A stretch of 32,285 nt of DNA from a virus (taxonomy: Duplodnaviria > Heunggongvirae > Uroviricota > Caudoviricetes). This document shows positions 13,306-32,285 of the stretch, in pieces. The translations under genes were made by a program, and so were the position numbers. The number at the start of each line of letters is the position of its first letter. The stretch's first letter is position 1. The stretch lies in the IMG/VR virus record IMGVR_UViG_2728369188_000005; one strand, 5' to 3'. The notes under the pieces are model-generated. The model saw only the letters and a program-made list of their open reading frames with translations, searched no databases and was not told where the DNA came from.

Positions 13306-13312
13306 GGACGAT

Positions 13313-14065: not shown

Positions 14066-14078
14066 ACGGAGGTAATAC

Positions 14079-14510
14079 ATGTTTCTGAAAACAGAACAAT
14101 TTGAATATAACGGTGTGTCTGTCACGCTTTCCGAATTGTCTGCGCTGCAGCGTATCGAGCATCTTGCCCTCCTGAAACGGCGTGCAGAACAGGAAGAATC
14201 CTGCGGCAACCTGCAGGTAAGCGTGGAAGATCTCGTCAGAACCGGCGCGTTTCTGGTGGCGATGTCCCTGTGGCATAACCATCCACAGAAAACGCAGTCA
14301 CCGTCAATGAATGAGGCCGTGATGAAGATAGAGCAGGAAGTGCTCACCACCTGGCCTGCCGATGCCATTGCCCGGGCGGAAGACGTGGTGTTGTGCCTGT
14401 CCGGGATGATCGAAGCTGTTCGTCCGGATACTGATATTACTGAAGTGGCGAAAAATAACACGCTGACTGATGATGATTTTTCTGCGGGAAAGTCTTCGAC
14501 GGCGAGCTGA
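14079..14510 (+). CDS. G: Tail assembly chaperone gpG, 143 aa
   Basis: Lambda G-like; contains the slippery heptamer G GGA AAG at 14486-14492 near its 3-prime end. Confidence 0.9.
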   Translation: MFLKTEQFEYNGVSVTLSELSALQRIEHLALLKRRAEQEESCGNLQVSVEDLVRTGAFLVAMSLWHNHPQKTQSPSMNEAVMKIEQEVLTTWPADAIARAEDVVLCLSGMIEAVRPDTDITEVAKNNTLTDDDFSAGKSSTAS

Positions 14511-14950
14511 ACTTTGCCCTCAGACTGGCGCGTGAGATGGGGAGACCCGACTGGCGCGCCATGCTTGCCGGGATGACATCCACCGAATATGCCGACTGGC
14601 ACCGTTTTTACCGCACGCATTATTTTCAGGATACCCAGCTGGATATGCATTTTTCCGGGCTGACGTACGCTGTACTCAGCCTGTTTTTTTGCGATCCGGA
14701 TATGCATCCCTCTGATTTCAGTCTGCTTGTCCCCCGGCATGAGGAAGAGCAGGTGGAGAGGCCGGATGAGGACAAAATGCTGATGCAGAAAGCGGCAGGA
14801 CTTGCCGGAGGCGTCCGGTTCGGTGGGGACGGAGGGCGCGATATTTTATCGTCTGCGGATGTGGCGGATGTCATGGTGGATGATGCCGCATTAATGATGG
14901 CTTCAGCGGGGATTCCGGGAGGTGTGAGATATGTCCCAGCCGGTTGGTGA
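14079..14950 (+). CDS. T: gpGT fusion made by -1 programmed ribosomal frameshift at GGGAAAG (14486-14492)
   Basis: After a -1 shift at 14486-14492 the frame reads GKVFDGELNFALRLAREMGRPDWRAMLAGMTSTEYADW... with no stop until 14950, collinear with the lambda gpT portion. Frame arithmetic: G codons start at positions with remainder 0 mod 3, T codons at remainder 2. Confidence 0.8.
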
Positions 14951-17477
14951 TCTTGTTATTGACCTGAGTCTGGATGCTGTCCGTTTCGATGAGCAGATGA
15001 GCCGGGTAAGGCGTCATTTTTCAGGTCTGGATACCGACGCCAGAAAAACCGCCAGTGCTGTTGAACAGGGCCTGAGCCGCCAGGCGCTGGCTGCACAAAA
15101 AGCCGGGATTTCCGTCGGGCAGTATAAAGCGGCCATGCGAACCCTGCCCGCACAGTTTACGGATATCGCCACGCAGCTTGCAGGTGGTCAGAATCCCTGG
15201 CTGATCCTGCTGCAACAGGGCGGTCAGGTGAAGGACTCCTTCGGCGGGATGATCCCCATGTTCAGGGGGCTCGCCGGTGCGATCACCCTGCCGATGGTCG
15301 GGGTCACCTCGCTGGCGGTGGCGACAGGTGCGCTGGTGTACGCCTGGTACCAGGGAGATTCCACGCTTTCAGCGTTTAATAAAACCCTGGTTCTTTCCGG
15401 TAATCAGTCCGGACTGACTGCCGATCGTATGCTGACTCTCTCAAGAGCCGGGCAGGCAGCAGGACTGACGTTTAACCAGGCGAGAGAGTCACTGGCAGCC
15501 CTGGTGAATGCCGGTGTGCGTGGTGGTGAACAGTTTGATGCCATCAACCAGAGTGTCGCGCGTTTTGCGTCTGCATCCGGTGTGGAGGTGGATAAAGTCG
15601 CTGAAGCCTTCGGGAAGCTGACCACTGACCCGACGTCGGGACTGATGGCGATGGCGCGCCAGTTCCGTAACGTGACGGCAGAGCAGATTGCGTATGTTGC
15701 ACAGCTGCAGCGTTCCGGAGACGAGGCCGGGGCATTGCAGGCGGCGAACGATATCGCCACGAAAGGCTTTGATGAGCAGACCCGTCGCCTGAAAGAAAAC
15801 ATGGGAACACTGGAGACCTGGGCGGATAAAACAGGGAAGGCATTCAAATCGATGTGGGATGCCATTCTGGATATCGGTCGTCCGGAATCCTCAGCGGATA
15901 TGCTCGCCAGTGCGCAGAAGGCATTTGATGAGGCGGATAAAAAATGGCAGTGGTACCAGAGCCGGAGCCAGCGCCGGGGAAAGACCTCCTCTTTTCGTGC
16001 GAACCTTCAGGGGGCATGGGATGACCGGGAAAATGCCCGTCTGGGTCTGGCAGCGGCCACGCTGCAGTCGGATATGGAAAAAGCCGGTGAACTGGCGGCA
16101 AGGGACCGGGCTGAGCGTGAGGCGTCACAGCTGAAGTATACCGGAGAGGCGCAGAAGGCGTATGAGCGCCTGCAGACGCCGCTGGATAAATATACCGCCC
16201 GTCAGAAAGAGCTGAATAAGGCCCTGAAAGACGGAAAAATCCTGCAGGCGGATTACAACACGCTGATGGCGTCGGCAAAAAAGGATTATGAATCGACGCT
16301 GAAAAAGCCGTCAGGTGTGAAGGTGTCTGCCGGTGAGCGCCAGGAAGACCGGGCGCATGCAGCCATGCTGGCGCTTGAAACCGAGCTCAGGACGCTGGAA
16401 AAACACAGCGGTGTGAATGAGAAAATCAGCCGGCAGCGCCGGGATTTATGGGAAGCGGAAAATCAGTATGTGGTCCTGAAAGAGGCCGCCACGAAACGGC
16501 AGTTATCTGAGCAGGAAAAATCCCTGCTGGCCCATGAGAAAGAAACGCTGGAGTACAAACGCCAGCTGGCTGAGCTGGGCGACAAGATTGAACACCAGAA
16601 ACGGCTGAATGAGCTGGCACAGCAGGCGGCGCGGTTTGAACAGCAGCAGAGCGCGAAGCAGGCGGCAATCAGCGCAAAAGCCCGCGGACTCACCGACCGT
16701 CAGGCGCAGCGGGAGTCGGAAGAGCAGCGCCTTCGTGAGGTGTACGGTGATAATCCGGCTGCGCTGGCGAAGGCCACATCTGCACTGAAGAACACCTGGT
16801 CTGCGGAGGAGCAGCTTCGTGGAAGCTGGATGGCCGGGATGAAGTCCGGCTGGGGCGAGTGGGCGGAAAGTGCGACGGACAGTTTTTCGCAGGTTAAAAA
16901 CGCGGCCACGCAGACCTTTGACGGTATTGCACAGAATATGGCAGCGATGCTGACCGGCAGCGAACAGAACTGGCGTGGTTTCACCCGTTCTGTGCTGTCC
17001 ATGCTGACAGAGATTTTTCTGAAGCAGGCGATGGTGGGGATAGTCGGGAGTATCGGCAGCGCATCCGCGTCAGGCGGTACAGCCATTCAGGCTGCGGCGG
17101 CGAACTTCCATTTCGCGACCGGGGGATTTACGGGGACGGGGGGTAAATATGAACCTGCGGGGATTGTTCATCGCGGGGAGTTTGTCTTCACGAAGGAGGC
17201 GACCAGCCGGATTGGTGTCGGCAATCTGTACCGCCTGATGCGGGGCTATGCGGAAGGTGGTTATGTCGGCGGTGCCGGAAGTCCGGCGCAGATGCGGCGG
17301 GCGGAAGGCATTAATTTTAATCAGAACAATCACGTGGTGATTCAGAACGACAGCATCAACGGACAGGCCGGGCCGCAGCTGATGAAAGCGGTGTATGAGA
17401 TGGCCCGTAAAGGTGCGCAGGATGAGCTCCGGCTGCAGTTGCGTGATGGCGGTCTGTTATCGGGGAGCGGGCGATGA
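14931..17477 (+). CDS. H: Tail tape measure protein gpH, 848 aa
   Basis: Length close to lambda H (853 aa); long alpha-helical, Ala/Gln-rich central region; starts within the T 3-prime end. Confidence 0.95.
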   Translation: MSQPVGDLVIDLSLDAVRFDEQMSRVRRHFSGLDTDARKTASAVEQGLSRQALAAQKAGISVGQYKAAMRTLPAQFTDIATQLAGGQNPWLILLQQGGQVKDSFGGMIPMFRGLAGAITLPMVGVTSLAVATGALVYAWYQGDSTLSAFNKTLVLSGNQSGLTADRMLTLSRAGQAAGLTFNQARESLAALVNAGVRGGEQFDAINQSVARFASASGVEVDKVAEAFGKLTTDPTSGLMAMARQFRNVTAEQIAYVAQLQRSGDEAGALQAANDIATKGFDEQTRRLKENMGTLETWADKTGKAFKSMWDAILDIGRPESSADMLASAQKAFDEADKKWQWYQSRSQRRGKTSSFRANLQGAWDDRENARLGLAAATLQSDMEKAGELAARDRAEREASQLKYTGEAQKAYERLQTPLDKYTARQKELNKALKDGKILQADYNTLMASAKKDYESTLKKPSGVKVSAGERQEDRAHAAMLALETELRTLEKHSGVNEKISRQRRDLWEAENQYVVLKEAATKRQLSEQEKSLLAHEKETLEYKRQLAELGDKIEHQKRLNELAQQAARFEQQQSAKQAAISAKARGLTDRQAQRESEEQRLREVYGDNPAALAKATSALKNTWSAEEQLRGSWMAGMKSGWGEWAESATDSFSQVKNAATQTFDGIAQNMAAMLTGSEQNWRGFTRSVLSMLTEIFLKQAMVGIVGSIGSASASGGTAIQAAAANFHFATGGFTGTGGKYEPAGIVHRGEFVFTKEATSRIGVGNLYRLMRGYAEGGYVGGAGSPAQMRRAEGINFNQNNHVVIQNDSINGQAGPQLMKAVYEMARKGAQDELRLQLRDGGLLSGSGR

Positions 17478-17803
17478 AAACATTTCGCTGGAAAGTGAAG
17501 CCTGATATGGAGGTGAACTCGCAGCCATCGGTGCGTGAAGTGCGTTTTGGTGACGGGTACTCACAGCGTATGGCGGCAGGGCTGAATGCTGACCTGAAAA
17601 CATACCGGGTGATGCTTTCCGTGACCCGGGAGGAGGCCCGGCATCTGGAAGCGTTTCTGGCAGAGCACGGTGGCTGGAAGGCATTTTTGTGGAAGCCACC
17701 CTATGCATACCGGCAGATAAAGGTGACCTGTGCCGGGTGGTCTGCGCGGGTCGGGATGTTGCGCGTTAAGTTCAGCGCGGAGTTTAAGCAGGTGGTGAAC
17801 TGA
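17474..17803 (+). CDS. M: Minor tail protein gpM, 109 aa
   Basis: Same 109-aa length as lambda M; ATGA overlap with H. Confidence 0.95.
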   Translation: MKTFRWKVKPDMEVNSQPSVREVRFGDGYSQRMAAGLNADLKTYRVMLSVTREEARHLEAFLAEHGGWKAFLWKPPYAYRQIKVTCAGWSARVGMLRVKFSAEFKQVVN

Positions 17804-18501
17804 TGCAGGATATTCACGAAGAAAGTCTGAACGAGTCGGTTAAATCAGAGCAGTCACCGCGGGTGGTACTCTGGGAAATCGACCTGACGGTACAGGGTGG
17901 TGAGCGGTATTTTTTCTGTAATGAGCTGAATGAAAAAGGGGAGCCGGTCATCTGGCAGGGGCGTAAGTATGAGGCATACCCGATTGACGGCAGCGGCTTT
18001 GAGATGAACGGCCGGGGCAGCAGTGCCAGACCGTCGCTGACGGTGTCCAATCTGTTCGGTCTGGTCACCGGGATGGCGGAAGACCTGCAGAGTCTGGTGG
18101 GGGCCACGGTGGTCCGCCGCCGGGTGTATGCCCGTTTTCTGGATGCGGTGAATTTCGTTGCGGGCAATCCGGAGGCGGACCCGGAGCAGGAGCTGAGTGA
18201 CCGCTGGGTGGTGGAGCAGATGTCGCAGCTGACAGCCATGACGGCCTCGTTTGTGCTGGCCACACCGACCGAGACGGACGGGGCGCTGTTTCCCGGTCGC
18301 ATCATGCTGGCGAACACCTGTATGTGGGATTACCGGGGAGATGAATGCGGGTATAACGGTCCTGCGGTGGCGGATGAGTTCGATAAACCCACCACGGATA
18401 TCCGTAAGGACAGATGCAGCAAGTGCATGCGCGGGTGTGAACTGCGCAGGAATGTCGGCAATTTTGGCGGTTTCCTTTCCATTAATAAACTTTCGCAGTA
18501 A
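17803..18501 (+). CDS. L: Minor tail protein gpL, 232 aa
   Basis: Same 232-aa length as lambda L, with the cysteine cluster near the C-terminus (CSKCMRGCELRR). Confidence 0.95.
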   Translation: MQDIHEESLNESVKSEQSPRVVLWEIDLTVQGGERYFFCNELNEKGEPVIWQGRKYEAYPIDGSGFEMNGRGSSARPSLTVSNLFGLVTGMAEDLQSLVGATVVRRRVYARFLDAVNFVAGNPEADPEQELSDRWVVEQMSQLTAMTASFVLATPTETDGALFPGRIMLANTCMWDYRGDECGYNGPAVADEFDKPTTDIRKDRCSKCMRGCELRRNVGNFGGFLSINKLSQ

Positions 18502-18511
18502 ATCCCGGTTT

Positions 18512-19255
18512 ATGACACAGACTGAATCAGCGATTCTGGCGCATGCCCGGCGGTGTGCGCCTGCGGAGTCGTGCGGCTTCGTGATAAGCACGCCGGAGGG
18601 GGAGCGGTATATCCCTTGTGTGAATATTTCCGCAGAGCCGGAGGCGTATTTTCGTATCGCACCGGAAGACTGGCTGCGGGCAGAGATGCAGGGGGAGATT
18701 GTGGCACTGGTCCACAGTCATCCCGGTGGGCTGCCCTGGCTGAGCGAGGCTGACCGGCGGCTGCAGATAAAAAGCGCACTGCCCTGGTGGCTGGTCTGCC
18801 GGGGTGACATTCACAAATTCCGCTGTGTGCCACATCTGACAGGACGGCGCTTTGAGCACGGGGTGACGGACTGTTACACGCTGTTCCGGGATGCTTATCA
18901 TCTGGCGGGGACTGAAATGCCGGATTTTCATCGCGAGGATGACTGGTGGCGCAACGGCCAGAACCTGTACCTGGACAATATGGAGGAAACGGGCTTTTAC
19001 CGGGTGCCCCTGTCCTCTGCACAGGCGGGCGATATTCTGCTGTGCTGCTTTGGTGCTTCGGTACCGAACCATGCCGCCATTTACTGCGGCAACGGTGAGC
19101 TGCTTCACCATCTGCCTGAACAACTGAGTAAACGGGAGAGGTATTCCGAAAAATGGCAACGACGAACGCATTCTGTCTGGCGTCACCGCCACTGGCACGC
19201 ATCTGCCTTCACGGGGATTTACAACGATTTGGCCGCCGCCTCAGCCTGTATGTGA
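18512..19255 (+). CDS. K: Tail assembly protein gpK (JAMM/MPN-like N-terminal part plus NlpC/P60-like C-terminal part), about 247 aa
   Basis: MTQTESAILAHARRCAPAESCGF...VHSHPGG...SEADR contains a JAMM-type HSHP motif; the C-terminal part has an NlpC/P60-like Cys/His arrangement (VTDCYTLFRDAYH). ATG 18512 is 11 nt after the L stop. The 103-nt overlap with I matches the K/I overlap I recall for lambda. Confidence 0.85.
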   Translation: MTQTESAILAHARRCAPAESCGFVISTPEGERYIPCVNISAEPEAYFRIAPEDWLRAEMQGEIVALVHSHPGGLPWLSEADRRLQIKSALPWWLVCRGDIHKFRCVPHLTGRRFEHGVTDCYTLFRDAYHLAGTEMPDFHREDDWWRNGQNLYLDNMEETGFYRVPLSSAQAGDILLCCFGASVPNHAAIYCGNGELLHHLPEQLSKRERYSEKWQRRTHSVWRHRHWHASAFTGIYNDLAAASACM

Positions 19256-19833
19256 ACACGGCAGCGGAAGCCATCCGGGCGCTGTCGTTACAGGTGCCCG
19301 GATTCCGCCGTCAGATGAACGAAGGCTGGTACCAGATACGTATTGCCGGTGAGGACACGGCACCGGAGGCGGTGTATGCCCGCCTTCACGAACAGCTGGG
19401 TGAGGGAACGGTCATCCACATTGTGCCGCGACTGGCCGGTGCCGGAAAGGGCGGACTGCAGATTGTGCTGGGGGCGGCAGCCATCGTGGGCTCTTTCTTC
19501 ACGGCCGGAGGCTCGATGGCGTTATGGGGTACAGCCCTGAGTGCCGGTGGTTTTTCTGCCACCACGATGCTGTTTTCACTGGGTGCCAGTATGATTCTGG
19601 GCGGTGTGGCCCAGATGCTGGCCCCGAAGGCAAAAACACCGGATTACCGCGCAACGGATAACGGTAAACAGAACACGTACTTTTCCTCACTGGACAACAT
19701 GATTGCCCAGGGCAACCCGATGCCGGTGCCCTACGGTGAAATGCTGGTTGGTTCACGACGTATCTCTCAGGACATCAGCACCCGTGATGAAGGCGGGGGC
19801 GGAAAGGTGGTGGTTATTGGTCGACAGGGATAA
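19153..19833 (+). CDS. I: Tail assembly protein gpI, 226 aa
   Basis: ARICLHGDLQRFGRR..., IHIVPRLAGAG..., KQNTYFSSLDNMIAQGNPMPVPYGEM is lambda I-like. Confidence 0.9.
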   Translation: MATTNAFCLASPPLARICLHGDLQRFGRRLSLYVNTAAEAIRALSLQVPGFRRQMNEGWYQIRIAGEDTAPEAVYARLHEQLGEGTVIHIVPRLAGAGKGGLQIVLGAAAIVGSFFTAGGSMALWGTALSAGGFSATTMLFSLGASMILGGVAQMLAPKAKTPDYRATDNGKQNTYFSSLDNMIAQGNPMPVPYGEMLVGSRRISQDISTRDEGGGGKVVVIGRQG

Positions 19834-19846
19834 AACATAAAAAAAT

Positions 19847-19871
19847 CCCGCAGTGATCGCGGAGCTGCGGG
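19847..19871 (-). terminator. Hairpin with U run on the minus strand (minus-strand terminator-like)
   Basis: CCCGCAG(19847-19853), 11-nt loop, CTGCGGG(19865-19871). On the minus strand the hairpin is followed by ATTTTTTTATGTTTT (complement of 19833-19846). Confidence 0.4.
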
Positions 19872-20037
19872 GACAGACAAATGAAGATTAATGTTAAGGA
19901 GTTGTTTTGGTTACTCGGGCAAAAAAACACTAACGCAGCGAAATTATAAGCGCCACAGTCAGTGTGTGAAAATGTGAAGATATTCAGAATTTTTATGCCA
20001 TTACCGGTTTTAACCAACAGGATTATCGGTGGGCATG

Positions 20038-20107
20038 AAAGAAAACCCCGGTATCTGCTGATACCGGGGTTTCTCTTTAGCATGGCAGAAATGTGTTTCA
20101 TGCTTTT
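20038..20107 (-). ncRNA. Candidate small RNA of about 70 nt (hypothetical)
   Basis: Minus-strand reading gives a sigma70-like promoter (-35 TTGCCA, complement of 20139-20144; 18-nt spacer; -10 TATCCT, complement of 20115-20120), then a 6-bp stem with 14-nt loop (20079-20104) and the 13-bp terminator hairpin with U tract. No plausible ORF. The strand and the existence of a transcript are inferred, not shown. Confidence 0.2.
20043..20078. terminator. Perfect 13-bp palindromic hairpin with U-rich tracts on both sides (bidirectional terminator-like)
   Basis: AAACCCCGGTATC(20043-20055), loop TGCT, GATACCGGGGTTT(20060-20072), followed by CTCTTT on plus; the minus-strand reading is followed by TTTTCTTTC. 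Confidence 0.5.
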
Positions 20108-20175
20108 CGGGCGAAGGATATCCGACTTCTGTACGGAATGGCAAGTGGCGGTTAATTTATTCAGGGGAAGGCTGT

Positions 20176-23100
20176 ATGGGAAAAGGTGGCGGTAAGGCAC
20201 ACACGCCTCGTGAGGCGAAGGATAATCTCAAATCCACGCAGATGATGAGTGTGATTGATGCGATTGGTGAGGGACCGATAGAAGGTCCGGTGAAGGGACT
20301 GCAGAGTATTCTGGTGAACAAAACCCCACTGACGGACACGGACGGCAATCCCGTGATACACGGTGTGACGGCGGTCTGGCGCGCCGGGGAGCAGGAGCAG
20401 ACACCACCGGAAGGCTTTGAGTCCTCCGGAGCTGAAACCGGACTGGGCGTGGAAGTGACGAAGGCAAAACCGGTGACGCGCACCATTACGTCCGCGAACA
20501 TTGACCGCCTGCGGATTACCTTCGGGGTGCAGTCACTGGTGGAGACCACCTCAAAGGGTGACCGTAACCCGGCATCCGTCCGCCTGCTGATTCAGTTACA
20601 GCGTAACGGTAACTGGGTGACAGAAAAGGACGTCACCATTAACGGCAAGACCACCTCACAGTTCCTGGCCTCGGTGATTCTGGATAATCTGCCTCCCCGG
20701 CCCTTTAACATCCGGATGGTCAGGGAGACGGCGGACAGCACCACGGACCAGCTGCAGAATAAGACGCTGTGGTCGTCATACACCGAAATCATCGATGTGA
20801 AACAGTGCTACCCGAACACGGCCATTGTGGGGCTGCAGGTGGATGCGGAGCAGTTCGGCGGCCAGCAGATGACGGTGAACTACCATATCCGCGGTCGCAT
20901 CATCCAGGTGCCGTCAAACTATGACCCGGAAAAACGCACGTACAGTGGTATCTGGGACGGCAGTCTGAAACCGGCATACAGCAACAACCCGGCCTGGTGC
21001 CTGTGGGACATGCTGACTCACCCGCGCTACGGCATGGGAAAACGTCTGGGGGCGGCGGATGTGGACAAGTGGGCGCTGTATGCCATCGGGCAGTACTGCG
21101 ACCAGACGGTCCCGGATGGTTTCGGGGGGACAGAGCCGCGGATGACCTTTAATGCGTACCTGGCACAACAGCGTAAGGCGTGGGACGTTCTCAGTGATTT
21201 CTGCTCTGCGATGCGCTGTATGCCGGTATGGAACGGTCAGACGCTGACGTTCGTTCAGGACCGCCCGTCGGATGTGGTGTGGCCGTACACCAACAGCGAT
21301 GTGGTGGTGGATGATAACGGCGTGGGATTCCGCTACAGCTTCAGTGCCCTGAAGGACCGGCACACGGCGGTGGAGGTGAATTACACCGACCCGCAGAACG
21401 GCTGGCAGACCTCCACGGAACTGGTGGAAGACCCGGAAGCCATACTGCGCTACGGACGCAACCTGCTGAAGATGGACGCGTTCGGCTGTACCAGCCGCGG
21501 TCAGGCCCACCGTGCCGGACTGTGGGTGATAAAGACCGAACTGCTGGAAACGCAGACGGTGGATTTCACGCTCGGGTCTCAGGGGCTGCGGCACACACCC
21601 GGTGACATTATTGAAATCTGTGATAATGACTATGCCGGGACCCTGACCGGCGGACGTGTCCTGTCCATTGATGCTGCCACCCGCACCCTGACGCTGGACC
21701 GTGAGGTTACCCTGCCGGAGACAGGTACATCGGCGGTGAACCTGATTAACGGCAGCGGTAAGCCGGTGAGTGTGGACATCACCGCACACCCCGCGCCGGA
21801 CCGGATACAGGTCAGTACCCTGCCTGATGGTGTGGAGACATACGGGGTGTGGGGACTCTCCCTGCCGTCACTGCGCCGTCGCCTGTTCCGCTGTGTCTCC
21901 ATCCGGGAAAACACGGACGGCACCTTTGCCATCACGGCGGTGCAGCACGTACCGGAAAAAGAAGCCATCGTGGATAACGGTGCCCGCTTTGAGCCGCAGT
22001 CAGGCTCCCTGAACAGCGTCATCCCACCGGCAGTGCAGCACCTGACGGTGGAGGTGAGCGCAGCTGACGGCCAGTATCTGGCACAGGCGAAATGGGACAC
22101 GCCGCGGGTGGTGAAGGGGGTGCGCTTCAGTCTGCGACTGACCAGCGGAAGCGGAGAAGACAGCCGTCTGGTGACCACCGCTATCACTGCGGATACAGAG
22201 CATCGTTTCAGTGGTCTGCCGCTCGGGGAATACACCCTGACAGTCAGGGCAATTAACAGTTATGGCCAGCAGGGCGAACCGGCCACCACCACCTTCCGGA
22301 TTAACGCGCCAGCAAAACCCGCCACCATTGAACTGACGCCGGGGTATTTTCAGATAACAGCGGTACCGGTGCTGGCGGTGTATGACCCGACGGTACAGTT
22401 TGAATTCTGGTTCTCAGAAAAACGCATCACGAACACGGCACAGGTGGAAAAATCTGCCCGTTATCTGGGGACTGGCAGTCAGTGGACTGTCTCCGGCCCG
22501 CACATTAAGCCCGGGAAGGATTTCTGGTTTTATGTACGCAGCGTTAACCTGGTGGGGAAATCTGCTTTTGTTGAAGCCAGTGGACGGGCCAGCAATGATG
22601 CAGAAGGGTATCTGGGGCTGTTTCGGGAAAAAATAGGAAAACTGCATCTGGCTCAGGGGCTGTGGGAGCTGATAGACAACAGCCAGCTTGCGGATGAGAT
22701 GGCGGAGATGAAGACCACCATCACCGAAACCCGCAATGAAATCACACAGACGGTCAGTAAAACGCTGGAGGACCAGAGCGCCACCATACAGCAGATACAG
22801 CGCGTGCAGAAGGACACAAATGATGACCTTGCTGCACTTTACATGCTGAAGGTACAGAAAACAAAAAATGGCATACCCTATGTTGCCGGTATTGGAGCGG
22901 GGATTGAGGATACTGATGGCCAGCCCCTGAGCAACATACTGCTGCTGGCTGACCGTATTGCGATGATTAACCCGGAGGACGGCAACACCACGCCGTTATT
23001 TGTGGCGCAGGGGAATCAGTTGTTCATGAACGATGTGTTCCTGAAGCGGCTGTTTGCGGTGAGTATCACCTCGTCCGGCAATCCCCCGACGTTTTCCCTG

Positions 23101-23649
23101 ACGCCGGAGGGCAGGCTGACCGCAAGAAATGCTGATATCAGCGGTAACGTGAATGCGAACTCCGGGACGCTCAACAACGTCACGATTAACGAGAACTGTC
23201 GGGTTCTGGGAAAATTGTCCGCCAACCAGATTGAAGGCGATCTCGTTAAAACAGTGGGCAAAGCTTTCCCCCGGGACTCCCGTGCACCGGAGCGGTGGCC
23301 ATCAGGGACCATTACCGTCAGGGTTTATGACGATCAGCCGTTTGACCGGCAAATTGTTATTCCGGCGGTGGCATTCAGTGGCGCTAAGCATGAGAGAGAG
23401 CATACTGATATTTACTCCTCATGCCGTCTGATAGTGCGGAAAAACGGTGCTGAAATTTATAACCGTACCGCGCTGGATAATACGCTGATTTACAGTGGTG
23501 TTATTGATATGCCTGCCGGTCACGGTCACATGACGCTGGAGTTTTCGGTGTCAGCATGGCTGGTGAATAACTGGTATCCCACAGCAAGTATCAGCGATTT
23601 GCTGGTTGTTGTGATGAAGAAAGCCACTGCAGGCATCACGATTAGCTGA
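20176..23649 (+). CDS. J: Host specificity protein / central tail fibre gpJ, 1157 aa
   Basis: Collinear with lambda J (1132 aa) from [21 protein letters not shown]... through the fibronectin-like repeats to a C-terminal receptor-binding region ending ...[25 protein letters not shown]. Confidence 0.95.
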
Positions 23650-23668
23650 ATTTTATAACCCAGATACG

Positions 23669-23692
23669 GGCGCCAGAAATGGCGCCTTTTTT
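23669..23692 (+). terminator. Intrinsic terminator after J
   Basis: GGCGCCA(23669-23675), loop GAAA, TGGCGCC(23680-23686), then TTTTTT(23687-23692). The second copy at 26727-26750 keeps the structure through compensatory changes. Confidence 0.7.
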
Positions 23693-23716
23693 ATTGCAGA
23701 AAAGCGAGAGGTAATT

Positions 23717-24316
23717 ATGCGTAAATTATGTGCTGTTATTCTGTCCACAGTAGTCTGGCTGGTCGCCGCTGGTACGCCAGCGAGCGCAGCAGAGCATCAG
23801 TCCACACTAAGCGCGGGGTATCTTCATGCCCGTACGAACGCTCCCGGCAGCGATAATCTGAACGGGATTAACGTGAAATACCGTTATGAGTTTACGGACG
23901 CGCTGGGGCTGATTACGTCCTTCAGTTATGCCAATGCTGAGGATAAGCAAAAAACGCACTACAGCGATACCCGCTGGCATGAAGATTCCGTGCGTAACCG
24001 CTGGTTCAGCGTGATGGCGGGGCCGTCTGTGCGCGTGAATGAATGGTTCAGCGCGTATGTGATGGCGGGTATGGCTTACAGCCGTGTGTCGACTTTCTCC
24101 GGGGATTATCTCCGCGTAACTGACAACAAGGGGAAAAAGCACGATGTGCTGACCGGAAGTGATGACGGTCGCCACAGCAACACGTCTCTGGCGTGGGGGG
24201 CTGGCGTGCAGTTTAACCCGACCGAATCCGTGGCCATTGATATTGCTTATGAAGGCTCCGGCAGTGGCGACTGGCGCACTGACGGTTTCATCGTGGGTGT
24301 CGGTTATAAGTTCTGA
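23717..24316 (+). CDS. lom: Lom outer-membrane protein (Ail/Lom family beta-barrel), 199 aa
   Basis: Signal peptide (MRKLCAVILSTVVWLVAAGTPASA) followed by alternating beta-strand sequence ending in the C-terminal aromatic GYKF; lambda lom position directly after J. GAGAGG Shine-Dalgarno. Confidence 0.9.
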   Translation: MRKLCAVILSTVVWLVAAGTPASAAEHQSTLSAGYLHARTNAPGSDNLNGINVKYRYEFTDALGLITSFSYANAEDKQKTHYSDTRWHEDSVRNRWFSVMAGPSVRVNEWFSAYVMAGMAYSRVSTFSGDYLRVTDNKGKKHDVLTGSDDGRHSNTSLAWGAGVQFNPTESVAIDIAYEGSGSGDWRTDGFIVGVGYKF

Positions 24317-24342
24317 TTAGCCAGGTAACACAGTGTTATGAC

Positions 24343-24369
24343 AGCCCGCCGGTTCAGGCGGGCTTTTTT
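24343..24369 (+). terminator. Intrinsic terminator after lom
   Basis: AGCCCGCC(24343-24350), loop GGTTCA, GGCGGGCT(24357-24364), then TTTTT(24365-24369). Confidence 0.65.
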
Positions 24370-24380
24370 GTGGAGTGGAT

Positions 24381-24390
24381 NNNNNNNNNN
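24381..24390. other. Assembly gap (10 N)
   Basis: Run of n. Sequence before the gap ends at the stf 5-prime leader (GTGGAGTGGAT); sequence after it resumes in the middle of a J homologue. Confidence 0.95.
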
Positions 24391-26707
24391 CTTCAGCGCC
24401 CTGAAGGACCGCCATAATGCCGTTGAGGTGAACTGGATTGACCCGAACAACGGCTGGGAGACGGCGACAGAGCTTGTTGAAGATACGCAGGCCATTGCCC
24501 GTTACGGTCGTAATGTCACGAAGATGGATGCCTTTGGCTGTACCAGCCGGGGGCAGGCACACCGCGCCGGGCTGTGGCTGATTAAAACGGAACTGCTGGA
24601 AACGCAGACCGTGGATTTCAGCGTGGGCGCAGAAGGGCTTCGCCATGTGCCGGGCGATGTTATTGAAATCTGCGATGATGACTATGCCGGTATCAGCACC
24701 GGTGGTCGCGTGCTGGCGGTGAACAGCCAGACCCGGACGCTGACTCTCGACCGTGAAATCACGCTGCCATCCTCCGGTACCACGCTGATAAGCCTGGTTG
24801 ACGGAAGTGGCAATCCGGTCAGCGTGGAGGTTCAGTCCGTCACCGACGGCGTGAAGGTAAAAGTGAGCCGTGTTCCTGACGGTGTTGCTGAATACAGCGT
24901 ATGGGGGCTGAAGCTGCCGACGCTGCGCCAGCGACTGTTCCGCTGCGTGAGTATCCGTGAGAACGACGACGGCACGTATGCCATCACCGCCGTGCAGCAT
25001 GTGCCGGAAAAAGAGGCCATCGTGGATAACGGGGCGCACTTTGACGGCGAACAGAGTGGCACGGTGAATGGTGTCACGCCGCCAGCGGTGCAGCACCTGA
25101 CCGCAGAAGTCACTGCAGACAGCGGGGAATATCAGGTGCTGGCGCGATGGGACACACCGAAGGTGGTGAAGGGCGTGAGCTTCCTGCTTCGCCTGACCGT
25201 GGCAGCGGATGACGGCAGTGAGCGGCTGGTCAGCACGGCCCGGACGACGGAAACCACATACCGCTTCACGCAACTGGCGCTGGGAAACTACAGGCTGACA
25301 GTCCGGGCGGCAAATGCCTGGGGGCAGCAGGGCGATCCGGCATCGGTATCGTTCCGTATTGCCGCACCGGCAGCGCCGTCGCGGATTGAGCTGACGCCGG
25401 GCTATTTTCAGATAACCGCCACGCCCCATCTTGCCGTTTATGATCCGACGGTACAGTTTGAGTTCTGGTTCTCGGAAAAGCGGATTGCGGATATCAGGCA
25501 GGTTGAAACCACAGCCCGCTATCTTGGCACGGCGCTGTACTGGATAGCTGCCAGTATCAATATCAAACCGGGCCATGATTATTATTTTTACATCCGCAGT
25601 GTGAACACCGTTGGCAAATCGGCATTTGTGGAGGCTGTTGGCCAGCCGAGTGATGATGCATCCGGCTATCTGGATTTTTTCAAAGGCGAGATAGGGAAAA
25701 GCCATCTGGCTCAGGAGCTGTGGACGCAGATTGATAACGGTCAGCTTGCGCCTGACCTGGCTGAAATCAGGACGTCCATTACGGATGTCAGCAATGAAAT
25801 CACGCAGACCGTCAATAAGAAACTGGAAGACCAGAGTGCGGCAATTCAGCAGATACAGAAGGTTCAGGTTGATACAAATAATAACCTGAACAGCATGTGG
25901 GCTGTGAAGCTGCAGCAGATGCAGGACGGACGCCTTTATATCGCGGGTATTGGTGCCGGTATTGAGAATACCCCTGACGGTATGCAGAGTCAGGTGCTGC
26001 TGGCGGCGGACAGGATTGCGATGATTAATCCTGCGAATGGCAATACAAAGCCGATGTTTGTTGGTCAGGGCGATCAGATATTCATGAACGAAGTGTTCCT
26101 GAAATATCTGACGGCTCCCACCATTACCAGCGGCGGTAATCCTCCGGCATTTTCCCTGACACCGGACGGGCGGCTGACGGCGAAAAATGCCGATATCAGC
26201 GGTAGCGTGAATGCGAACTCCGGGACGCTCAACAACGTCACGATTAACGAGAACTGTCGGGTTCTGGGAAAACTGTCCGCGAACCAGATTGAAGGCGATC
26301 TCGTTAAAACAGTGGGCAAAGCTTTCCCCCGGGACTCCCGTGCACCGGAGCGGTGGCCATCAGGGACCATTACCGTCAGGGTTTATGACGATCAGCCGTT
26401 TGACCGGCAAATTGTTATTCCGGCGGTGGCATTCAGTGGCGCTAAGCATGAGAGAGAGCATACTGATATTTACTCCTCATGCCGTCTGATAGTGCGGAAA
26501 AACGGTGCTGAAATTTATAACCGTACCGCGCTGGATAATACGCTGATTTACAGTGGCGTTATTGATATGCCTGCCGGTCACGGTCACATGACGCTGGAGT
26601 TTTCGGTGTCAGCATGGCTGGTAAATGACTGGTATCCCACAGCAAGTATCAGCGATTTGCTGGTTGTGGTGATGAAGAAAGCCACCGCAGGCATCAGTAT
26701 CAGCTGA
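24391..26707 (+). CDS. J: Second gpJ copy, 5-prime truncated by the gap (C-terminal ~770 aa present), diverged from copy 1
   Basis: Begins [31 protein letters not shown]..., which aligns with J copy 1 from about residue 385. Roughly 70-80% identical by eye through most of its length, but nearly identical over the last ~500 nt (26206-26620 versus 23148-23560). Confidence 0.85.
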
Positions 26708-26726
26708 ATTTTATAACCCCAATACG

Positions 26727-26750
26727 GGCGTCAGAAATGACGCCTTTTTT
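26727..26750 (+). terminator. Intrinsic terminator after J copy 2
   Basis: GGCGTCA(26727-26733), loop GAAA, TGACGCC(26738-26744), then TTTTTT. Differs from copy 1 by a compensatory pair (C to T in the left arm, G to A in the right arm). Confidence 0.7.
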
Positions 26751-26774
26751 ATTGCAGAAAAGCGAGAGGTAATT

Positions 26775-27374
26775 ATGCGTAAATTATGTGCTGTTATTCT
26801 GTCCACAGTAGTCTGGCTGGTCGCCGCTGGTACGCCAGCGAGCGCAGCAGAGCATCAGTCCACACTAAGCGCCGGGTATCTTCAGACCCATACTGATATG
26901 CCCGGCAACGATGACCTGAAGGGCATTAACGTGAAATACCGTTATGAATTTACGGACACGCTGGGGCTGGTGACGTCATTCAGTTATGCCAATGCCAAAG
27001 ATGAGCAAAAAACGCATTACAGCGATACCCGCTGGCATGAAGATTCAGTGCGTAACCGCTGGTTCAGCATGATGGCGGGGCCGTCTGTACGCGTGAATGA
27101 ATGGTTCAGTGCTTATGCGATGGCAGGTGTGGCTTACAGCCGTGTTTCGACTTTTTCCGGGGATTATCTCCGCGTAACTGACAGCAAGGGGAAAACGCAC
27201 GATGTGCTGACCGGAAGTGATGACGGTCGCCACAGCAACACGTCTCTGGCGTGGGGGGCTGGCGTGCAGTTTAACCCGACCGAATCCGTGGCCATTGATA
27301 TTGCTTATGAAGGCTCCGGCAGTGGTGACTGGCGCACTGACGGTTTCATCGTGGGTGTCGGTTATAAATTCTGA
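26775..27374 (+). CDS. lom: Lom outer-membrane protein, second copy, 199 aa
   Basis: About 90% identical by eye to lom copy 1 (differences include HARTNAPGSDNLNG versus QTHTDMPGNDDLKG); same signal peptide and C-terminus. Confidence 0.9.
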   Translation: MRKLCAVILSTVVWLVAAGTPASAAEHQSTLSAGYLQTHTDMPGNDDLKGINVKYRYEFTDTLGLVTSFSYANAKDEQKTHYSDTRWHEDSVRNRWFSMMAGPSVRVNEWFSAYAMAGVAYSRVSTFSGDYLRVTDSKGKTHDVLTGSDDGRHSNTSLAWGAGVQFNPTESVAIDIAYEGSGSGDWRTDGFIVGVGYKF

Positions 27375-27400
27375 TTAGCCAGGTAACACAGTGTTATGAC

Positions 27401-27427
27401 AGCCCGCCGGTTCAGGCGGGCTTTTTT
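27401..27427 (+). terminator. Intrinsic terminator after lom copy 2
   Basis: Same AGCCCGCC / GGCGGGCT hairpin and T run as after lom copy 1. Confidence 0.65.
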
Positions 27428-27438
27428 GTGGAGTGGAT

Positions 27439-29846
27439 ATGGCAGCAGTAAAAATCTCAGGTGTGCTGAAAGATGGTGCGGGAAAACCAATACAGAACTG
27501 CACTATTCAACTGAAGGCAAAGCGTAACAGCACCACGGTACTGGTGAACACGGTGGCCTCTGAAAATCCTGATGAAGCCGGGCGTTACAGCATGGATGTT
27601 GAGTATGGCCAGTACAGCGTCACCCTGCTGGTTGAAGGTTNNNNNNNNNNNNNNNNNNNNNNNNNNNNNNNNNNNNNNNNNNNNNNNNNNNNNNNNNNNN
27701 NNNNNNNNNTTCCAGACCAGGTACGCTGAATGATTTTCTCGGTGCCATGACGGAGGATGATGTCCGACCGGAGGCACTGCGCCGCTTTGAGCAGATGGTG
27801 GAAGAAGCGGCACGCAACGCTGAAGCCGCCTCTCAGAGCGCAGCGGCGGCAAAGAAATCCGAAACTGCAGCGGCATCATCGAAGAACGCGGCGAAAACCT
27901 CAGAAACGAATGCAGCTAATAGTGCACAGGCGGCAGCGACCTCAAAGACTGCATCGGCAAACTCCGCGACAGCAGCCAAAAAATCAGAAACCAACGCGAA
28001 AAATAGCGAGACAGCCGCAAAGACGAGCGAAACCAACGCAAAGTCCAGCCAGACGGCAGCGAAAACCAGCGAAACGAATGCCAAAGCCAGTGAAACTGCG
28101 GCAAAAAACAGCCAGGTTGCAGCAGCCCAAAGCGAGAGCGCGGCAGCCGGTTCTGCGACTTCAGCAGCTGGATCAGCAACTGCTGCAGCTAACAGCCAGA
28201 AAGCAGCGAAGACGAGCGAAACTAACGCAAAGTCCAGCCAGACGGCAGCGAAGACCAGCGAAACGAATGCCAAAGCCAGCGAAACTGCGGCGAAAAACAG
28301 CCAGGTTGCAGCAGCCCAAAGCGAGAGCGCGGCAGTTGGTTCTGCAAGCGCGGCGGCTGCTTCTGCCACTGCATCAGCCAACAGTCAAAAAGCGGCAAAA
28401 ACCAGTGAAACCAATGCAAAGACAAGCGAGACTGCAGCGGCCAACTCGGCGAAAGCATCCGCTGCAAACCAGACCGCTGCAAAAGCAAGTGAAGACGCAG
28501 CCAGAGAGTATGCAAGCCAGGCAGCAGATCCGTATAAATATGTCTTACAGCCGCTGCCTGATGTGTGGATACCGTTTAACGATTCACTGGATATGATTAC
28601 GGGCTTTTCGCCATCATATAAAAAGATTGTTATTGGTGACGACGAAATAACGATGCCTGGCGACAAGATTGTTAAGTTTAAACGTGCATCGAAAGCAACC
28701 TATATTAACAAATCTGGTGTGCTGACAGAGGCTGCCATTGATGAGCCACGATTTGAACGTGATGGCCTGCTTATTGAGGGGCAAAGAACTAATCTTCTGC
28801 TTAATTCAACAAATCCATCTAAATGGAATAAGTCAGGCAATCTGGAACTCACAGAAATATCCACGGATTCTTTTAATTTTACTTATGGGAGATTTACTGT
28901 AAAAGATACTCTTATTGGTCAGACAAGTGCTATTAATATCGTAACGGTTTCTGGCAGTAAAGGGTTTGATGTCACAGGTGATGAAAAATATGTGACCATT
29001 TCATGCCGTGTAAGAAGTGATGTTGAAAATGTAAGGTGTCGTTTAAGATTTGAACACCATGATGGTTATACTTACACTTTTTTGGGAGATGCTTACCTCA
29101 ATTTATCAACACTTGTAATTGATAAAGCTGGTACTGCTGCAGACCGTATTATTGCAAAGGCTGTAAAAGATGAGGTTACTGGTTGGATTTTCTATCAGGC
29201 TACAATTAATGCACTAGATACAGAGAGCATGATTGGTGCGATGGTTCAATACGCTCCTGTAAAAGGTTCAGGCACAGCATCTGGAGACTATCTGGATATC
29301 GCAACTCCACAAGTGGAAGGTGGATCAAGTGCTTCGTCATTTATTGTAACTGATATAACTGCAAGCACTCGCGCAAGCGATATGGTGACAGTCCCAATCA
29401 AGAATAACCTTTATAATCTTCCTTTTACGGTTCTTTGTGAGGTACATAAGAACTGGTATAAAACGCCAAATGCAGCACCGCGTGTTTTTGATACCGGCGG
29501 TCATCAAACCGGAGCGGCTATTATTCTTGGCTTCGGTCGTTCAACAGATTACGACGGATTTCCTTATTGTGATATAGGTTTGGCTAACAGACGGGTAAAC
29601 GAAAACGCATCGCTTGAAAAAATGGTTATGGGGATGCGTGTAAAGTCAGATCAGTCTACGTGCTCAGTAAGTAACGGGCGTATATCCAGCGAAAAGAAAG
29701 CCACATGGTCCTATATTCAGAACTCCGCAATTATCCGTATTGGAGGCCAGACTACAGCCGGGTTACGTCATTTATTTGGTCATGTCAGGAATTTCAGAAT
29801 ATGGCACAAGGCATTGACTGATGCTCAGATGGGGGAGTCAATCTAA
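27439..29846 (+). CDS. stf: Side tail fibre protein Stf, interrupted by the N gap at 27641-27709
   Basis: N-terminus MAAVKISGVLKDGAGKPIQNCTIQLKAKRNSTTVLVNTVASENPDEAGRYSMDVEYGQYSVTLLVEG matches lambda Stf. After the gap the frame continues ...PGTLNDFLGAMTEDDVRPEALRRFEQMVEE..., then an Ala/Ser/Thr-rich repeat shaft and a ~430-aa C-terminal domain. True length and frame continuity across the gap are unknown. Confidence 0.85.
27641..27709. other. Assembly gap (69 N) inside stf
   Basis: Run of n. Confidence 0.95.
28018..28395 (+). repeat. Tandem duplication of a 189-bp (63-aa) unit within the stf shaft
   Basis: GACGAGCGAAAC...AGCCAGACGGCAGCG recurs with period 189 nt (28022 and 28211); protein unit AKTSETNAKSSQTAAKTSETNAKASETAAKNSQVAAAQSESAA... 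occurs twice. Confidence 0.7.
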
Positions 29847-30074
29847 TGAAAGATTTAACACTCAAATTTGCAGACAGGGCCGACTTTTCGGCCTTTATGG
29901 ATAGCATTGGCTATTATGATGACGAGTCGATGCAGGATGATATTCTTATTGACGTGATAGGTAATGTGTACAAAGAAACCGGAGAACTGACTGAAGATGG
30001 CGAACCGGTATGTGTTAAGGAAGACGGATATTTTGTAAACGTGCGCATCATTAATGATTCGCAAATATCGTCAT
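29846..30074 (+). CDS. Hypothetical protein, 3-prime end lost in the N gap (N-terminal 76 aa visible)
   Basis: ATG 29846 overlaps the stf stop (TAATG), with GGGGGAG 8 nt upstream. MKDLTLKFADRADFSAFMDSIGYYDDESMQDDILIDVIGNVYKETGELTEDGEPVCVKEDGYFVNVRIINDSQISS; acidic and soluble; not recognised. Confidence 0.5.
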
Positions 30075-30172
30075 NNNNNNNNNNNNNNNNNNNNNNNNNN
30101 NNNNNNNNNNNNNNNNNNNNNNNNNNNNNNNNNNNNNNNNNNNNNNNNNNNNNNNNNNNNNNNNNNNNNNNN
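30075..30172. other. Assembly gap (98 N)
   Basis: Run of n. Confidence 0.95.
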
Positions 30173-30833
30173 GGGAGATGTCAGTAAGGCAAAGGAAGAT
30201 ATTTCCTCAATTAACGTAAAAGTATCAACGCTTCAGACTGATATGGACAGTGCAAAGCAGGATATCAGTACCAGATACACAAAAACAGAAGTGGATAATA
30301 AGCTGAAAAACAAAGTGGAAGTGAACGATCTGGAAAGTGGTCGTTATGGCGGAGATTTTTACCCGCTGACTGGCCGTGAAGCGTTTTATTTATGGGGATT
30401 GGGCACAACTACAGCGGCGGCAAATCTTTATCTTAATCCTGACCCCGCAATTTCGTCTGTGCTGCGGTCAACATCGTCTATCCGCTATAAACATTCAGTA
30501 GAGACGATAGATTCAGAGCACGCCGATCTCATTTTCAGGATGCGCCCTGTGTGGTACAGGTCGCAATGCGAAAATGACAGGCGTGACTGGGGATTCTATG
30601 GATTGATTGCCGAGGAAGTAGGAGAAATTGCCCCTCAGTTTGTTCACTGGCGACCAGCTAACGAGAATGATGCTCCTGAAGCTATTTCCAGCAATGGCCT
30701 TGTTGCCGAAGGTGTAATGTACGAACGTCTGGTTGTTCCACTGATTCACCATATCCAGAAACTGACTGAAAGAGTTGATGAACTTGAGTCAGAATTAAAG
30801 TTGTTATCAACTTCCCGAAGCGATATCGGATAA
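30173..30833 (+). CDS. C-terminal part of a tail fibre/tailspike with a peptidase-S74-type intramolecular chaperone domain (5-prime end in gap)
   Basis: Coiled-coil stretch (DISSINVKVSTLQTDMDSAKQDISTRYTKTEVDNKLKNKVEVNDLE), then SSIRYKHSVETIDSEHADLIF...DWGFYGLIAEEVGEIAPQFV...NGLVAEGVMYERLVVPLIHHIQKLTERVDELESELKLL. From memory this is the hallmark of the self-cleaving C-terminal chaperone of phage fibres (endosialidase, T5 L-fibre type). Confidence 0.6.
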
Positions 30834-30843
30834 AGGAGGAGTA

Positions 30844-31137
30844 ATGGATATAACACCTTTCCTTCATGCACTTTGTGCTGTGGCTGCGCAGGTACTGGTT
30901 GGTCTTTTTACCGGAAACTGGGCTTACGGGGCGATAGCCGGTTGTACGTTCTTCATTGCTCGTGAACATACCCAGGCAGAATATCGCTGGATTGAAATGT
31001 TCGGGCATGGCAAGCGAATGAATATGCCGTGGTGGGGCGGTTTTGATCCGCGCGCGTGGGATGTAGCAAGTCTGATGGATTTTGCTGTGCCGGTGGTGGC
31101 GTGTCTGCTGGTCTGGCTGTTGGTTAATCGTGGGTGA
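30844..31137 (+). CDS. Small predicted membrane protein, 97 aa, function unknown
   Basis: Perfect AGGAGG Shine-Dalgarno 4 nt upstream of ATG 30844. Two or three hydrophobic segments (FLHALCAVAAQVLVGLF, AYGAIAGCTFFIA, FAVPVVACLLVWLLV). Confidence 0.6.
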   Translation: MDITPFLHALCAVAAQVLVGLFTGNWAYGAIAGCTFFIAREHTQAEYRWIEMFGHGKRMNMPWWGGFDPRAWDVASLMDFAVPVVACLLVWLLVNRG

Positions 31138-31147
31138 AAAAAGGTGA

Positions 31148-31276
31148 GCTGTATATGCAACGGAGGAAGAAACCTCGTTGCTGGAAGCCTGGAAGAAGTA
31201 TCGGGTGTTGCTGAACCGTGTTGATACATCAACTGCACCTGATATTGAGTGGCCTACGAACCCTGTCAGGGAGTAA
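31148..31276 (+). pseudogene. tfa: Remnant 3-prime end of a tail fibre assembly gene (tfa), no start codon
   Basis: Reads ...[39 protein letters not shown] stop, the conserved Tfa C-terminus. It is preceded in frame by a stop at 31145-31147 and has no upstream Tfa N-terminal domain. Confidence 0.6.
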
Positions 31277-31416
31277 TCATTGGGATTATGCCGCAGCACG
31301 TCTTAAGCAAGAACGTGCTGCGGTTGGATGCTATTTTTTCCCTGAAGCGGAAAACATTACTACAGTACCTTGAACCTTGGTTTTAACATTCTCGAAATGC
31401 TCTGAGAGTATATGTG

Positions 31417-31950
31417 TTAAGCCTTCTTCGGAATCTTTTGTGNNNNNNNNNNNNNNNNNNNNNNNNNNNNNNNNNNNNNNNNNNNNNNNNNNNNNNNNNN
31501 NNNNNNNNNNNNNNNNNNNNNNNNNNNNNNNNNNNNNNNNNNNNNNNNNNNNNNNNNNNNNNNNNNNNNNNNNNNNNNNNNNNNNNNNNNNNNNNNNNNN
31601 NNNNNNNNNNNNNNNNNNNNNNNNNNNNNNNNNNNTTCAAAAACATCATGGCTAATTTTATGTTTAATTTTTGATTCCCCAGCCCTTGTAGATGCCGCGT
31701 TCAGGCTAGCTTCGTTCAAATCCATTAAAGATATCAGACTACTCTCAGGTACGTGAGTAAGATAAAACCCAGTTCCAACACCAATATCCAGATGGTTGTT
31801 ACCTAAATGTTCCAGAAAGTGTGGAAGAAGGTGTTCCTTTGTAGGACATCCCCATGCAAGCCGATTTGATACTCCCAAAACCCACCAGTCATAAAGCTTT
31901 AGGGTAAGTGGTGTGTAAATTTTAGCCCCATCATCTGTGTTTTTTTTCAT
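31417..31950 (-). CDS. Class I SAM-dependent methyltransferase-like protein (minus strand), interrupted by the N gap at 31443-31635
   Basis: Minus-strand ORF whose N-terminal 105 aa (MKKNTDDGAKIYTPLTLKLYDWWVLGVSNRLAWGCPTKEHLLPHFLEHLGNNHLDIGVGTGFYLTHVPESS...) contains a Rossmann motif-I-like LDIGVGTGF. GGTGA Shine-Dalgarno precedes ATG 31950 (alternative ATG 31962). The C-terminal 8 codons after the gap end at the stop at 31417-31419; frame across the gap is unverifiable. Confidence 0.45.
   Translation of the reverse strand: MKKNTDDGAKIYTPLTLKLYDWWVLGVSNRLAWGCPTKEHLLPHFLEHLGNNHLDIGVGTGFYLTHVPESSLISLMDLNEASLNAASTRAGESKIKHKISHDVFEXXXXXXXXXXXXXXXXXXXXXXXXXXXXXXXXXXXXXXXXXXXXXXXXXXXXXXXXXXXXXXXXXQKIPKKA
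31443..31635. other. Assembly gap (193 N)
   Basis: Run of n. Confidence 0.95.
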
Positions 31951-32018
31951 TGATTTCACCATGTTATAGTTTTATTTGTGAATTAAATCAATTATGGCGA
32001 TGAATTACAAGGGGTTAA

Positions 32019-32285
32019 ATGCTGCCGCAGCATAGCGATATTGAAATAGCCTGGTATGCTTCGATACAGCAGGAGCCGAATGGCTGGAAGACCGTCACCA
32101 CACAGTTCTACATCCAGGAATTCAGTGAGTATATTGCGCCACTGCAGGATGCTGTAGATCTGGAAATCGCAACGGAGGAAGAAAGATCGTTGCTGGAGGC
32201 ATGGAATAAATATCGGGTGTTGTTGAATCGTGTTGATACATCAACTGCACCTGATATTGAGTGGCCGACTTCACCTGCAGAGTAA
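32019..32285 (+). CDS. tfa: Tail fibre assembly protein Tfa-like, short form (C-terminal domain only), 88 aa
   Basis: ...[50 protein letters not shown] matches the conserved lambda/e14 Tfa C-terminus. AAGGGG Shine-Dalgarno before ATG 32019; stop coincides with the window end. Confidence 0.7.

Follow-up and report, generated by a model that had tools for sequence, protein, structure and literature searches.

Does a single lambdoid phage carry two alleles of its host specificity gene J side by side, and what made those alleles, which differ over much of their length, nearly identical toward their 3' ends? Both questions are raised by a window of 32,285 nt (IMG/VR record IMGVR_UViG_2728369188_000005), a term used here for the whole stretch of DNA that was analyzed. 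Along it follow J, lom, what looks like another, partial J (ending at 26707), another lom, and the side-tail-fiber genes. An earlier note, made from the letters alone, had read the two J copies as neighboring alleles with a mosaic breakpoint inside the gene. Here, we argue for two statements that probably hold together (at a probability of roughly 0.9): a contig of a second, co-resident prophage (prophage B) was misplaced in the draft of a first one (prophage A), and the J genes of these two prophages are true mosaics.

The window covers the late region, head and tail, of a lambda-like prophage. The J gene of prophage A lies at 20176..23649 on the plus strand and encodes a tip attachment or host specificity protein of 1,157 amino acids. 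Its product matched the lambda gpJ structure 8IYK_J over residues 1 to 834 and 863 to 1156 (phmmer, E = 0). Six gpJ-specific Pfam domains were found above the curated cutoffs in both J(A) and the full-length J(B), namely, FNIII-A_GpJ, Phage-tail_3, Ig_J, Ig_J_second, Phage_Tail_Tip, and Ig_GpJ_C. The last of these, the C-terminal receptor-binding domain, occupies residues 1027 to 1157 of J(A) in the Pfam match. Full-length homology and the domain set thus place the protein in the lambda gpJ family, and the gene has the corresponding position in the lambdoid tail operon (…H-M-L-K-I-J-lom-stf), with the same I-J-lom-stf neighborhood as in lambda. In the 100%-identical loci of closed genomes, RefSeq annotates a tape measure protein, minor tail protein L, a C40 peptidase, a tail assembly protein, gpJ, Ail/Lom, and a tail fiber. 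The order of domains is also shared with lambda gpJ (PDB 8IYK and 8XCJ/8XCK): a hub, two FNIII/Ig domains, a helical shaft, a beta-prism fiber, and a C-terminal Ig-like receptor-binding domain. The domain map of gpJ was taken from PMC11101478.

A repeat finder and BLAST showed that 21339-24380 is repeated directly at 24391-27438, with about 80% identity overall. The first copy includes lom of prophage A, for an outer-membrane beta-barrel of the Ail/Lom type (23717..24316, plus strand; Pfam Ail_Lom, E = 4e-125), and the second includes lom of prophage B (26775..27374, plus strand; Ail_Lom, E = 3.5e-126). The copies meet at a run of 10 N (24381..24390), with prophage A sequence up to 24380 and prophage B sequence from 24391, a false junction according to the comparisons below. 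A second run, of 69 N, at 27641..27709 closes the inserted segment, and after it the window returns to prophage A within stf.

When the two diverged shafts were used as queries against complete Escherichia coli genomes, both were found at 100% identity in the closed genomes FDAARGOS_536, 21AR0173, and AREA_492. In all three genomes, the two matches lie about 820 to 840 kb apart on opposite strands. In FDAARGOS_536, window 9339-24380 is 100% identical over 15,042 nt to prophage A, near potAB/pepT. The segment 24391..27640 (plus strand) comprises lom(B), preceded by the last 2.3 kb of J(B), whose reading frame was confirmed, and followed by 202 nt from the start of stf. It is identical at 3,248 of 3,250 positions to prophage B (NZ_CP033762.1, around 1.479 Mb, minus strand); to prophage A it is 81.7% identical. 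Beyond the second gap, window 27710-30074 is collinear with prophage A (L001 15285-17649) at 99.7% identity, compared with 91% to prophage B, and windows 30173-31442 and 31636-32285 are each 100% identical to prophage A. Positions 15042 and 15285 of the prophage A locus L001 therefore flank the inserted segment, which leaves a true gap of only 242 nt.

The window holds two further N runs, at 30075-30172 (98 N) and 31443-31635 (193 N). A reading of the N runs as deliberate masks was rejected: the corresponding stretches of prophage A in the closed genome measure 106 and 230 nt, and the disagreement in length indicates estimated scaffold gaps rather than base-for-base masks. The gaps at 27641-27709, 30075-30172, and 31443-31635 all fall within tail-fiber genes that are repeated among prophages.

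The N borders, the matches to two separate prophages, and the failure to find the junction elsewhere lead us to infer that the tandem J'-lom arrangement is a scaffolding artefact. A 300-nt query across the join from lom to mid-J found no place with at least 80% coverage in 5,426 complete E. coli genomes and 50,697 phage records, and a pattern scan for the junction itself, in which any base was allowed at the 10 N positions, gave no match in the contigs of species-representative genomes. The 3' part of the B contig is nearly identical to prophage A, so the scaffolder would have placed the contig in A's small gap. Repeat-induced scaffolding errors are known in just this form, with a contig that ends in a near-identical repeat being put between contigs of the other copy; N runs at the joins and estimated gap sizes that differ from the true lengths are shared here, and nothing about this window is unusual for such an error. 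The idea of two J alleles side by side must thus be given up, as the second copy is an N-flanked contig whose prophage lies about 820 kb away in the closed genomes. The earlier note had overlooked the 10 N at the junction of the copies, as well as the continuation of the near-identical block past the J stop codon.

It is highly improbable that the source strain truly carries a B-derived J'-lom between lom and stf of prophage A, which would make one phage with a full J plus a 5'-truncated second J and its own lom. The window as given does show that order, and an ATG at 24338 happens to share the reading frame of the J fragment on the other side of the 10 N. However, the sequence is interrupted by N exactly at both borders, the left junction would need an illegitimate join of the lom terminator to mid-J, and the junction is absent from the genomes, phage records, and contigs searched. 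In addition, where both J genes occur as 100%-identical copies in closed genomes, about 820 kb lie between them. From the gpJ domain map (PMC11101478), a J lacking its N-terminal 388 residues, the hub, would presumably be unable to form a tail tip. If the insertion were real after all, a hub-less J fragment could serve as a soluble decoy that blocks receptors or excludes superinfection. The open reading frame at 24338-26707 (789 amino acids) was rejected as a real truncated J; its first 18 codons consist of lom-terminator sequence and N. Its start is spurious: the frame opens in the lom terminator region, passes the 10-N gap, and meets that of the J fragment only by chance.

With the second copy assigned to prophage B, the comparison of the two J genes becomes one between two prophages of the same chromosome. 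In 60-nt sliding windows along a global alignment, identity was 43 to 85% up to about 23100 and 96 to 100% from 23130. The maximum chi-square breakpoint was located after 23126, with a chi-square of 192 compared with a maximum of 18 in 1,000 permutations. Identity was 67.7% to the left of this breakpoint (the diverged shaft segment of J(A), 21339..23126, plus strand, against 24391-26184) and 97.7% to the right. The receptor-binding cassette of J(A) at 23148..23649 differs from that of J(B) at 26206..26707 (both on the plus strand) at only 10 of 502 nt, and seven of these 10 differences are synonymous. At the protein level, the two J products are 66.8% identical over residues 389 to 985 and agree at 169 of 172 residues from 986 to 1157. 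The identity switch inside J is therefore real and far beyond chance.

These results bear out the earlier description of J copies that are diverged upstream and nearly identical over the last ~500 nt, and the profile is a sharp step at about 23100 to 23130 with no sign of uniform divergence. The slight renewed divergence described for the last ~90 nt was also recovered: three of the 10 differences fall in 23148-23564 and seven in the final 85 nt. The three amino acid changes in the tip are N991S, N1132D (NNWYP/NDWYP), and T1155S (ITIS/ISIS), the last two of them in this final part. The near-identical block does not stop with J. Beyond the stop codon, it takes in the spacer and lom as far as 24380, and one patch of lom is more diverged.

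The same profile was obtained without the draft. In FDAARGOS_536, prophages A and B are about 55 to 90% identical through J and 91 to 100% identical from the same breakpoint onward. The shared block in the closed genome measures about 2.4 kb and comprises the J tip, lom, and about 1.1 kb of stf, after which identity drops. Could the near-identity itself be an artefact, the reads of two repeats having been collapsed and one consensus used twice? Two positions speak for this: the B contig has T at 26437 and G at 26446, as in prophage A, unlike prophage B of the closed genome (C and A), and these are the only two mismatches between contig and closed genome. They may be true differences between strains or products of conversion, or bases that bled through in the consensus from one collapsed repeat to the other, and bleed-through of this kind may account for a little of the draft's near-identity. 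As an account of the whole block, however, collapse is barely credible. The closed genome shows 12 differences in the receptor-binding block compared with 10 in the draft, and the independent genomes IAI39, O104:H4, and O157 also carry the cassette.

Recombination was assessed by the maximum chi-square on one pair of sequences, as above, and by distance incongruence in a panel of six J-lom sequences: A, B, an O104:H4 prophage, IAI39, O157:H7 F8092B, and lambda. In the shaft (about 21339-23125), A and the O104:H4 prophage differ at 8 of 1,793 positions, and B and IAI39 at 6 of 1,793; J(A) is O104:H4-like over its whole length, and J(B) is IAI39-like. The corresponding counts in the receptor-binding block are 15/506 and 9/506. 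Between A and B, 583 of 1,793 shaft positions differ, compared with 12 of 506 in the receptor-binding block. B and lambda show the opposite pattern, with 263/1,793 differences in the shaft and 222/506 in the block. In the receptor-binding block, A and O157 differ at 9/506 positions. In general, the receptor-binding block is 96.4 to 98.2% identical in all four J genes of the panel other than lambda to which it was compared, on either shaft type; lambda, which has the second (B-type) shaft but a different cassette, is only about 55% identical there.

The relationships on the two sides of the breakpoint are thus incongruent, as judged from distance tables and sliding identities for the six sequences, and conservation alone does not explain them. 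The block also has the form by which lambdoid mosaics were defined (at least 100 bp at more than 90% identity, with weaker flanks above background; PMC3945230), being 97.7% identical next to a 67.7% flank. J(A) and J(B) accordingly appear to be genuine mosaics of each other, and the mosaic at the J tip is a case of the module swapping already known in lambdoid phages. The proposed exchange of a receptor-binding cassette held in part: the cassette is common to different shafts at 96.4 to 98.2% identity, but the exchanged block is larger than proposed and includes lom and the 5' part of stf.

It could be supposed that no exchange took place and that purifying selection, acting far more strongly on the C-terminal domain than on the shaft, kept that domain similar. 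The functional constraint on receptor-binding domains and the synonymous share of the differences (7 of 10) would suit this view. Against it, the switch is abrupt (about 20 nt) and includes synonymous sites, with nucleotide divergence of 32% on one side and 2% on the other, and the noncoding J-lom spacer and lom are nearly identical as well. Moreover, lambda has a B-type shaft and yet only ~55% identity in the receptor-binding domain, and A and O104 are more diverged in that domain than in the shaft. The incongruence of lambda and O104 means that constraint alone cannot be the cause, and we regard selection without exchange as very improbable.

Other joints were seen in the same panel. J(B) and lambda J are 93 to 100% identical over the first ~2.4 kb, and identity then falls to 42 to 65% in the region of the helical shaft and beta-prism fiber, equivalent to window 22570-23020, which lies before the linker described below. 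The fiber segment is therefore a separately exchangeable piece, distinct from the receptor-binding domain. The J of O157:H7 F8092B (L006 1530-5002), annotated in RefSeq as frameshifted, is itself a mosaic, A-like for about 2 kb and B-like after the equivalent of window 22120-22270. It marks a second recombination breakpoint inside J, in the Ig/FNIII region.

The breakpoint between A and B coincides with a conserved stretch. In the alignment of the six J genes, a linker of about 40 nt (23134..23173, plus strand; 13 residues, 987 to 999 of J) is nearly invariant in all six, and the 25-mer at 23149-23173 is identical in all six, lambda included. Together with N985-A986, the encoded motif comprises J residues 985 to 999, equivalent to lambda residues 959 to 973, and it lies about 30 residues upstream of the receptor-binding domain as delimited by Pfam. 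At the linker, A and B turn identical; lambda diverges from 23174. Natural gpJ variants match lambda up to about residue 964 and have been swapped experimentally at that point, and the same lambda residue 964 was the insertion point in engineered gpJ chimeras (PMC11338833). The module boundary of the A8 and 1A2 gpJ variants (residue 964) thus lies within the linker, at the same place as the natural breakpoint found here. The conserved linker is the module boundary, and crossover probably took place there.

When species-representative genomes were scanned for the linker 25-mer, 24 loci were returned, of which eight are genuine Escherichia/Shigella loci, a small cross-species panel left after 16 lambda matches were set aside. 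The genuine loci include Shigella flexneri, E. albertii, and E. ruysiae, in which B-type sequence upstream is joined to the common receptor-binding domain. In Escherichia sp. E1V33 (L027, about 5098-5122), the upstream sequence is lambda-like (91.6%), and the 476 nt downstream match neither the common nor the lambda domain; this is a third type of receptor-binding cassette at the same linker boundary. The other 16 genomes are nonenteric (Neobacillus, Pseudomonas, Shewanella, Bradyrhizobium, Chromatium, Paenibacillus, and others). Their contigs are 96.8 to 100% identical to lambda on both sides of the 25-mer, and several of these contigs are about 48.4 to 48.5 kb long or have about 1x coverage. 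These loci look like lambda DNA contamination in public assemblies.

Beyond the panel, of 5,426 complete E. coli genomes, 3,350 contain the cassette (at least 80% of 23148-23649 covered), often in several copies, and 2,253 records carry it at 95 to 99% identity. It occurs on at least two unrelated shaft lineages. In the block, A and B (12/506) are no closer to each other than either is to the prophages of unrelated strains (9 to 15/506). This distance and the wide occurrence together mean that the receptor-binding cassette circulates widely.

The same numbers bear on whether the shared block was produced by recent gene conversion between A and B in this lineage, rather than by separate inheritance of cassettes. 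Such conversion would be easy to picture, with A and B residing in one chromosome, several stretches of 90 to 275 nt being perfectly identical between the two copies, and recombination among resident prophages being generally documented (PMC3945230). However, the A-B distance of 12/506 is no smaller than that of A and O157 (9/506) or of B and IAI39 (9/506), the 95 to 99% cassette is found in all of the 2,253 records mentioned, and lom(B) is nearer to lom of IAI39 (28/767) than to lom(A) (43/767). There was no sign of a recent conversion between prophages A and B specifically. Recent in situ conversion was therefore downgraded as the main explanation; we consider it unlikely.

Under the preferred reading, a misplaced contig together with a true J(A)/J(B) mosaic, the events can be pictured as follows. 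The window would be a scaffolded draft of the lambdoid prophage A, into whose ~242-nt gap a 3.25-kb contig of the co-resident prophage B was put. In the hub and shaft parts, the two J genes belong to different lineages, J(A) being like that of the O104:H4 prophage and J(B) like that of lambda over the first ~2.4 kb. The two prophages share a block of about 2.4 kb that begins in the linker with the receptor-binding domain of J close by, contains lom, and reaches into the 5' part of stf. Homology in the linker would let relaxed homologous recombination, of the phage Red/Rad52 type or by RecA, cross between genes that are only 68% identical, and the other crossover would lie further right, in stf. 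The receptor-binding domain, lom, and the N terminus of stf may thus have moved as one block, and host range would be reassorted independently of the tail-tip hub.

De Paepe et al. (2014, PMC3945230) showed in experiments that recombination between short, diverged stretches of homology lets lambda acquire DNA from defective prophages. When genomes of temperate or defective E. coli phages were compared in pairs, 0.8 to 2.4 blocks of more than 90% identity with weaker flanks were counted for each pair; such blocks are common in lambdoid phages and prophages and arise through Red-beta or RecA (PMC3945230). The present case resembles those mosaics in having a block above 90% next to a weaker flank (~68%) in two E. 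coli lambdoid prophages, and it differs in size, as the block of ~2.4 kb in the closed genome exceeds their median mosaic of 400 to 500 bp (PMC3945230).

At the J tip, one substitution can be enough to change which receptor is used, as in the host-range mutants of lambda. With just three residues differing between the tips (169 of 172 identical), it is plausible that A and B use the same receptor. After the linker, the cassette is 43% identical to the LamB-binding domain of lambda in protein and about 55% in DNA, and this is the point at which J here departs from lambda gpJ. The cassette lacked the similarity to lambda J residues ~975 to 1132 (loops L1 to L4) by which a LamB-binding type is recognized, and at 43% identity the use of LamB is not to be assumed. 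The best PDB match of the cassette was A8 gpJ (9WCA, "A8 gpJ 713"), with only 60.5% identity after the linker, including indels. Lambda given the natural C terminus of A8 or 1A2, grafted at residue 964, uses OmpC instead of LamB (Brodel et al. 2024, PMC11338833). For the receptor of the cassette, a porin, for example OmpC, would be a reasonable guess, but only a guess.

Further observations concern the genes downstream of J. The two lom genes differ at 39 nt and 17 amino acids, and the differences are clustered at residues 37 to 49, where 8 of 13 residues differ (window 23825-23866 against 26883-26924). This patch may be a loop that is exposed at the surface and subject to diversifying selection, or else a micro-mosaic. 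In stf, a tandem direct repeat of 189 nt is present in two copies that are 85% identical (window 27963-28340). A 101-nt direct repeat (91%) at window 31157-31257 and 32169-32269 represents two fragments of the tail-fiber-assembly gene (tfa). According to the annotation of the closed genome, these fragments flank a minus-strand gene for a class I SAM-dependent methyltransferase (L001 18740-19905), which looks like cargo inserted in a duplicated tfa remnant at the prophage end.

Where tandem "alleles" appear in a draft prophage region, the N runs and closed relatives should be checked before the arrangement is interpreted, since scaffolding routinely goes wrong at prophage modules that are nearly identical. 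For the lambdoid phages themselves, the locus adds little new biology: swaps of the J receptor-binding domain, along with lom and the N terminus of stf, are how they reassort host range, and the swap point is a conserved linker that has already been exploited in phage engineering.
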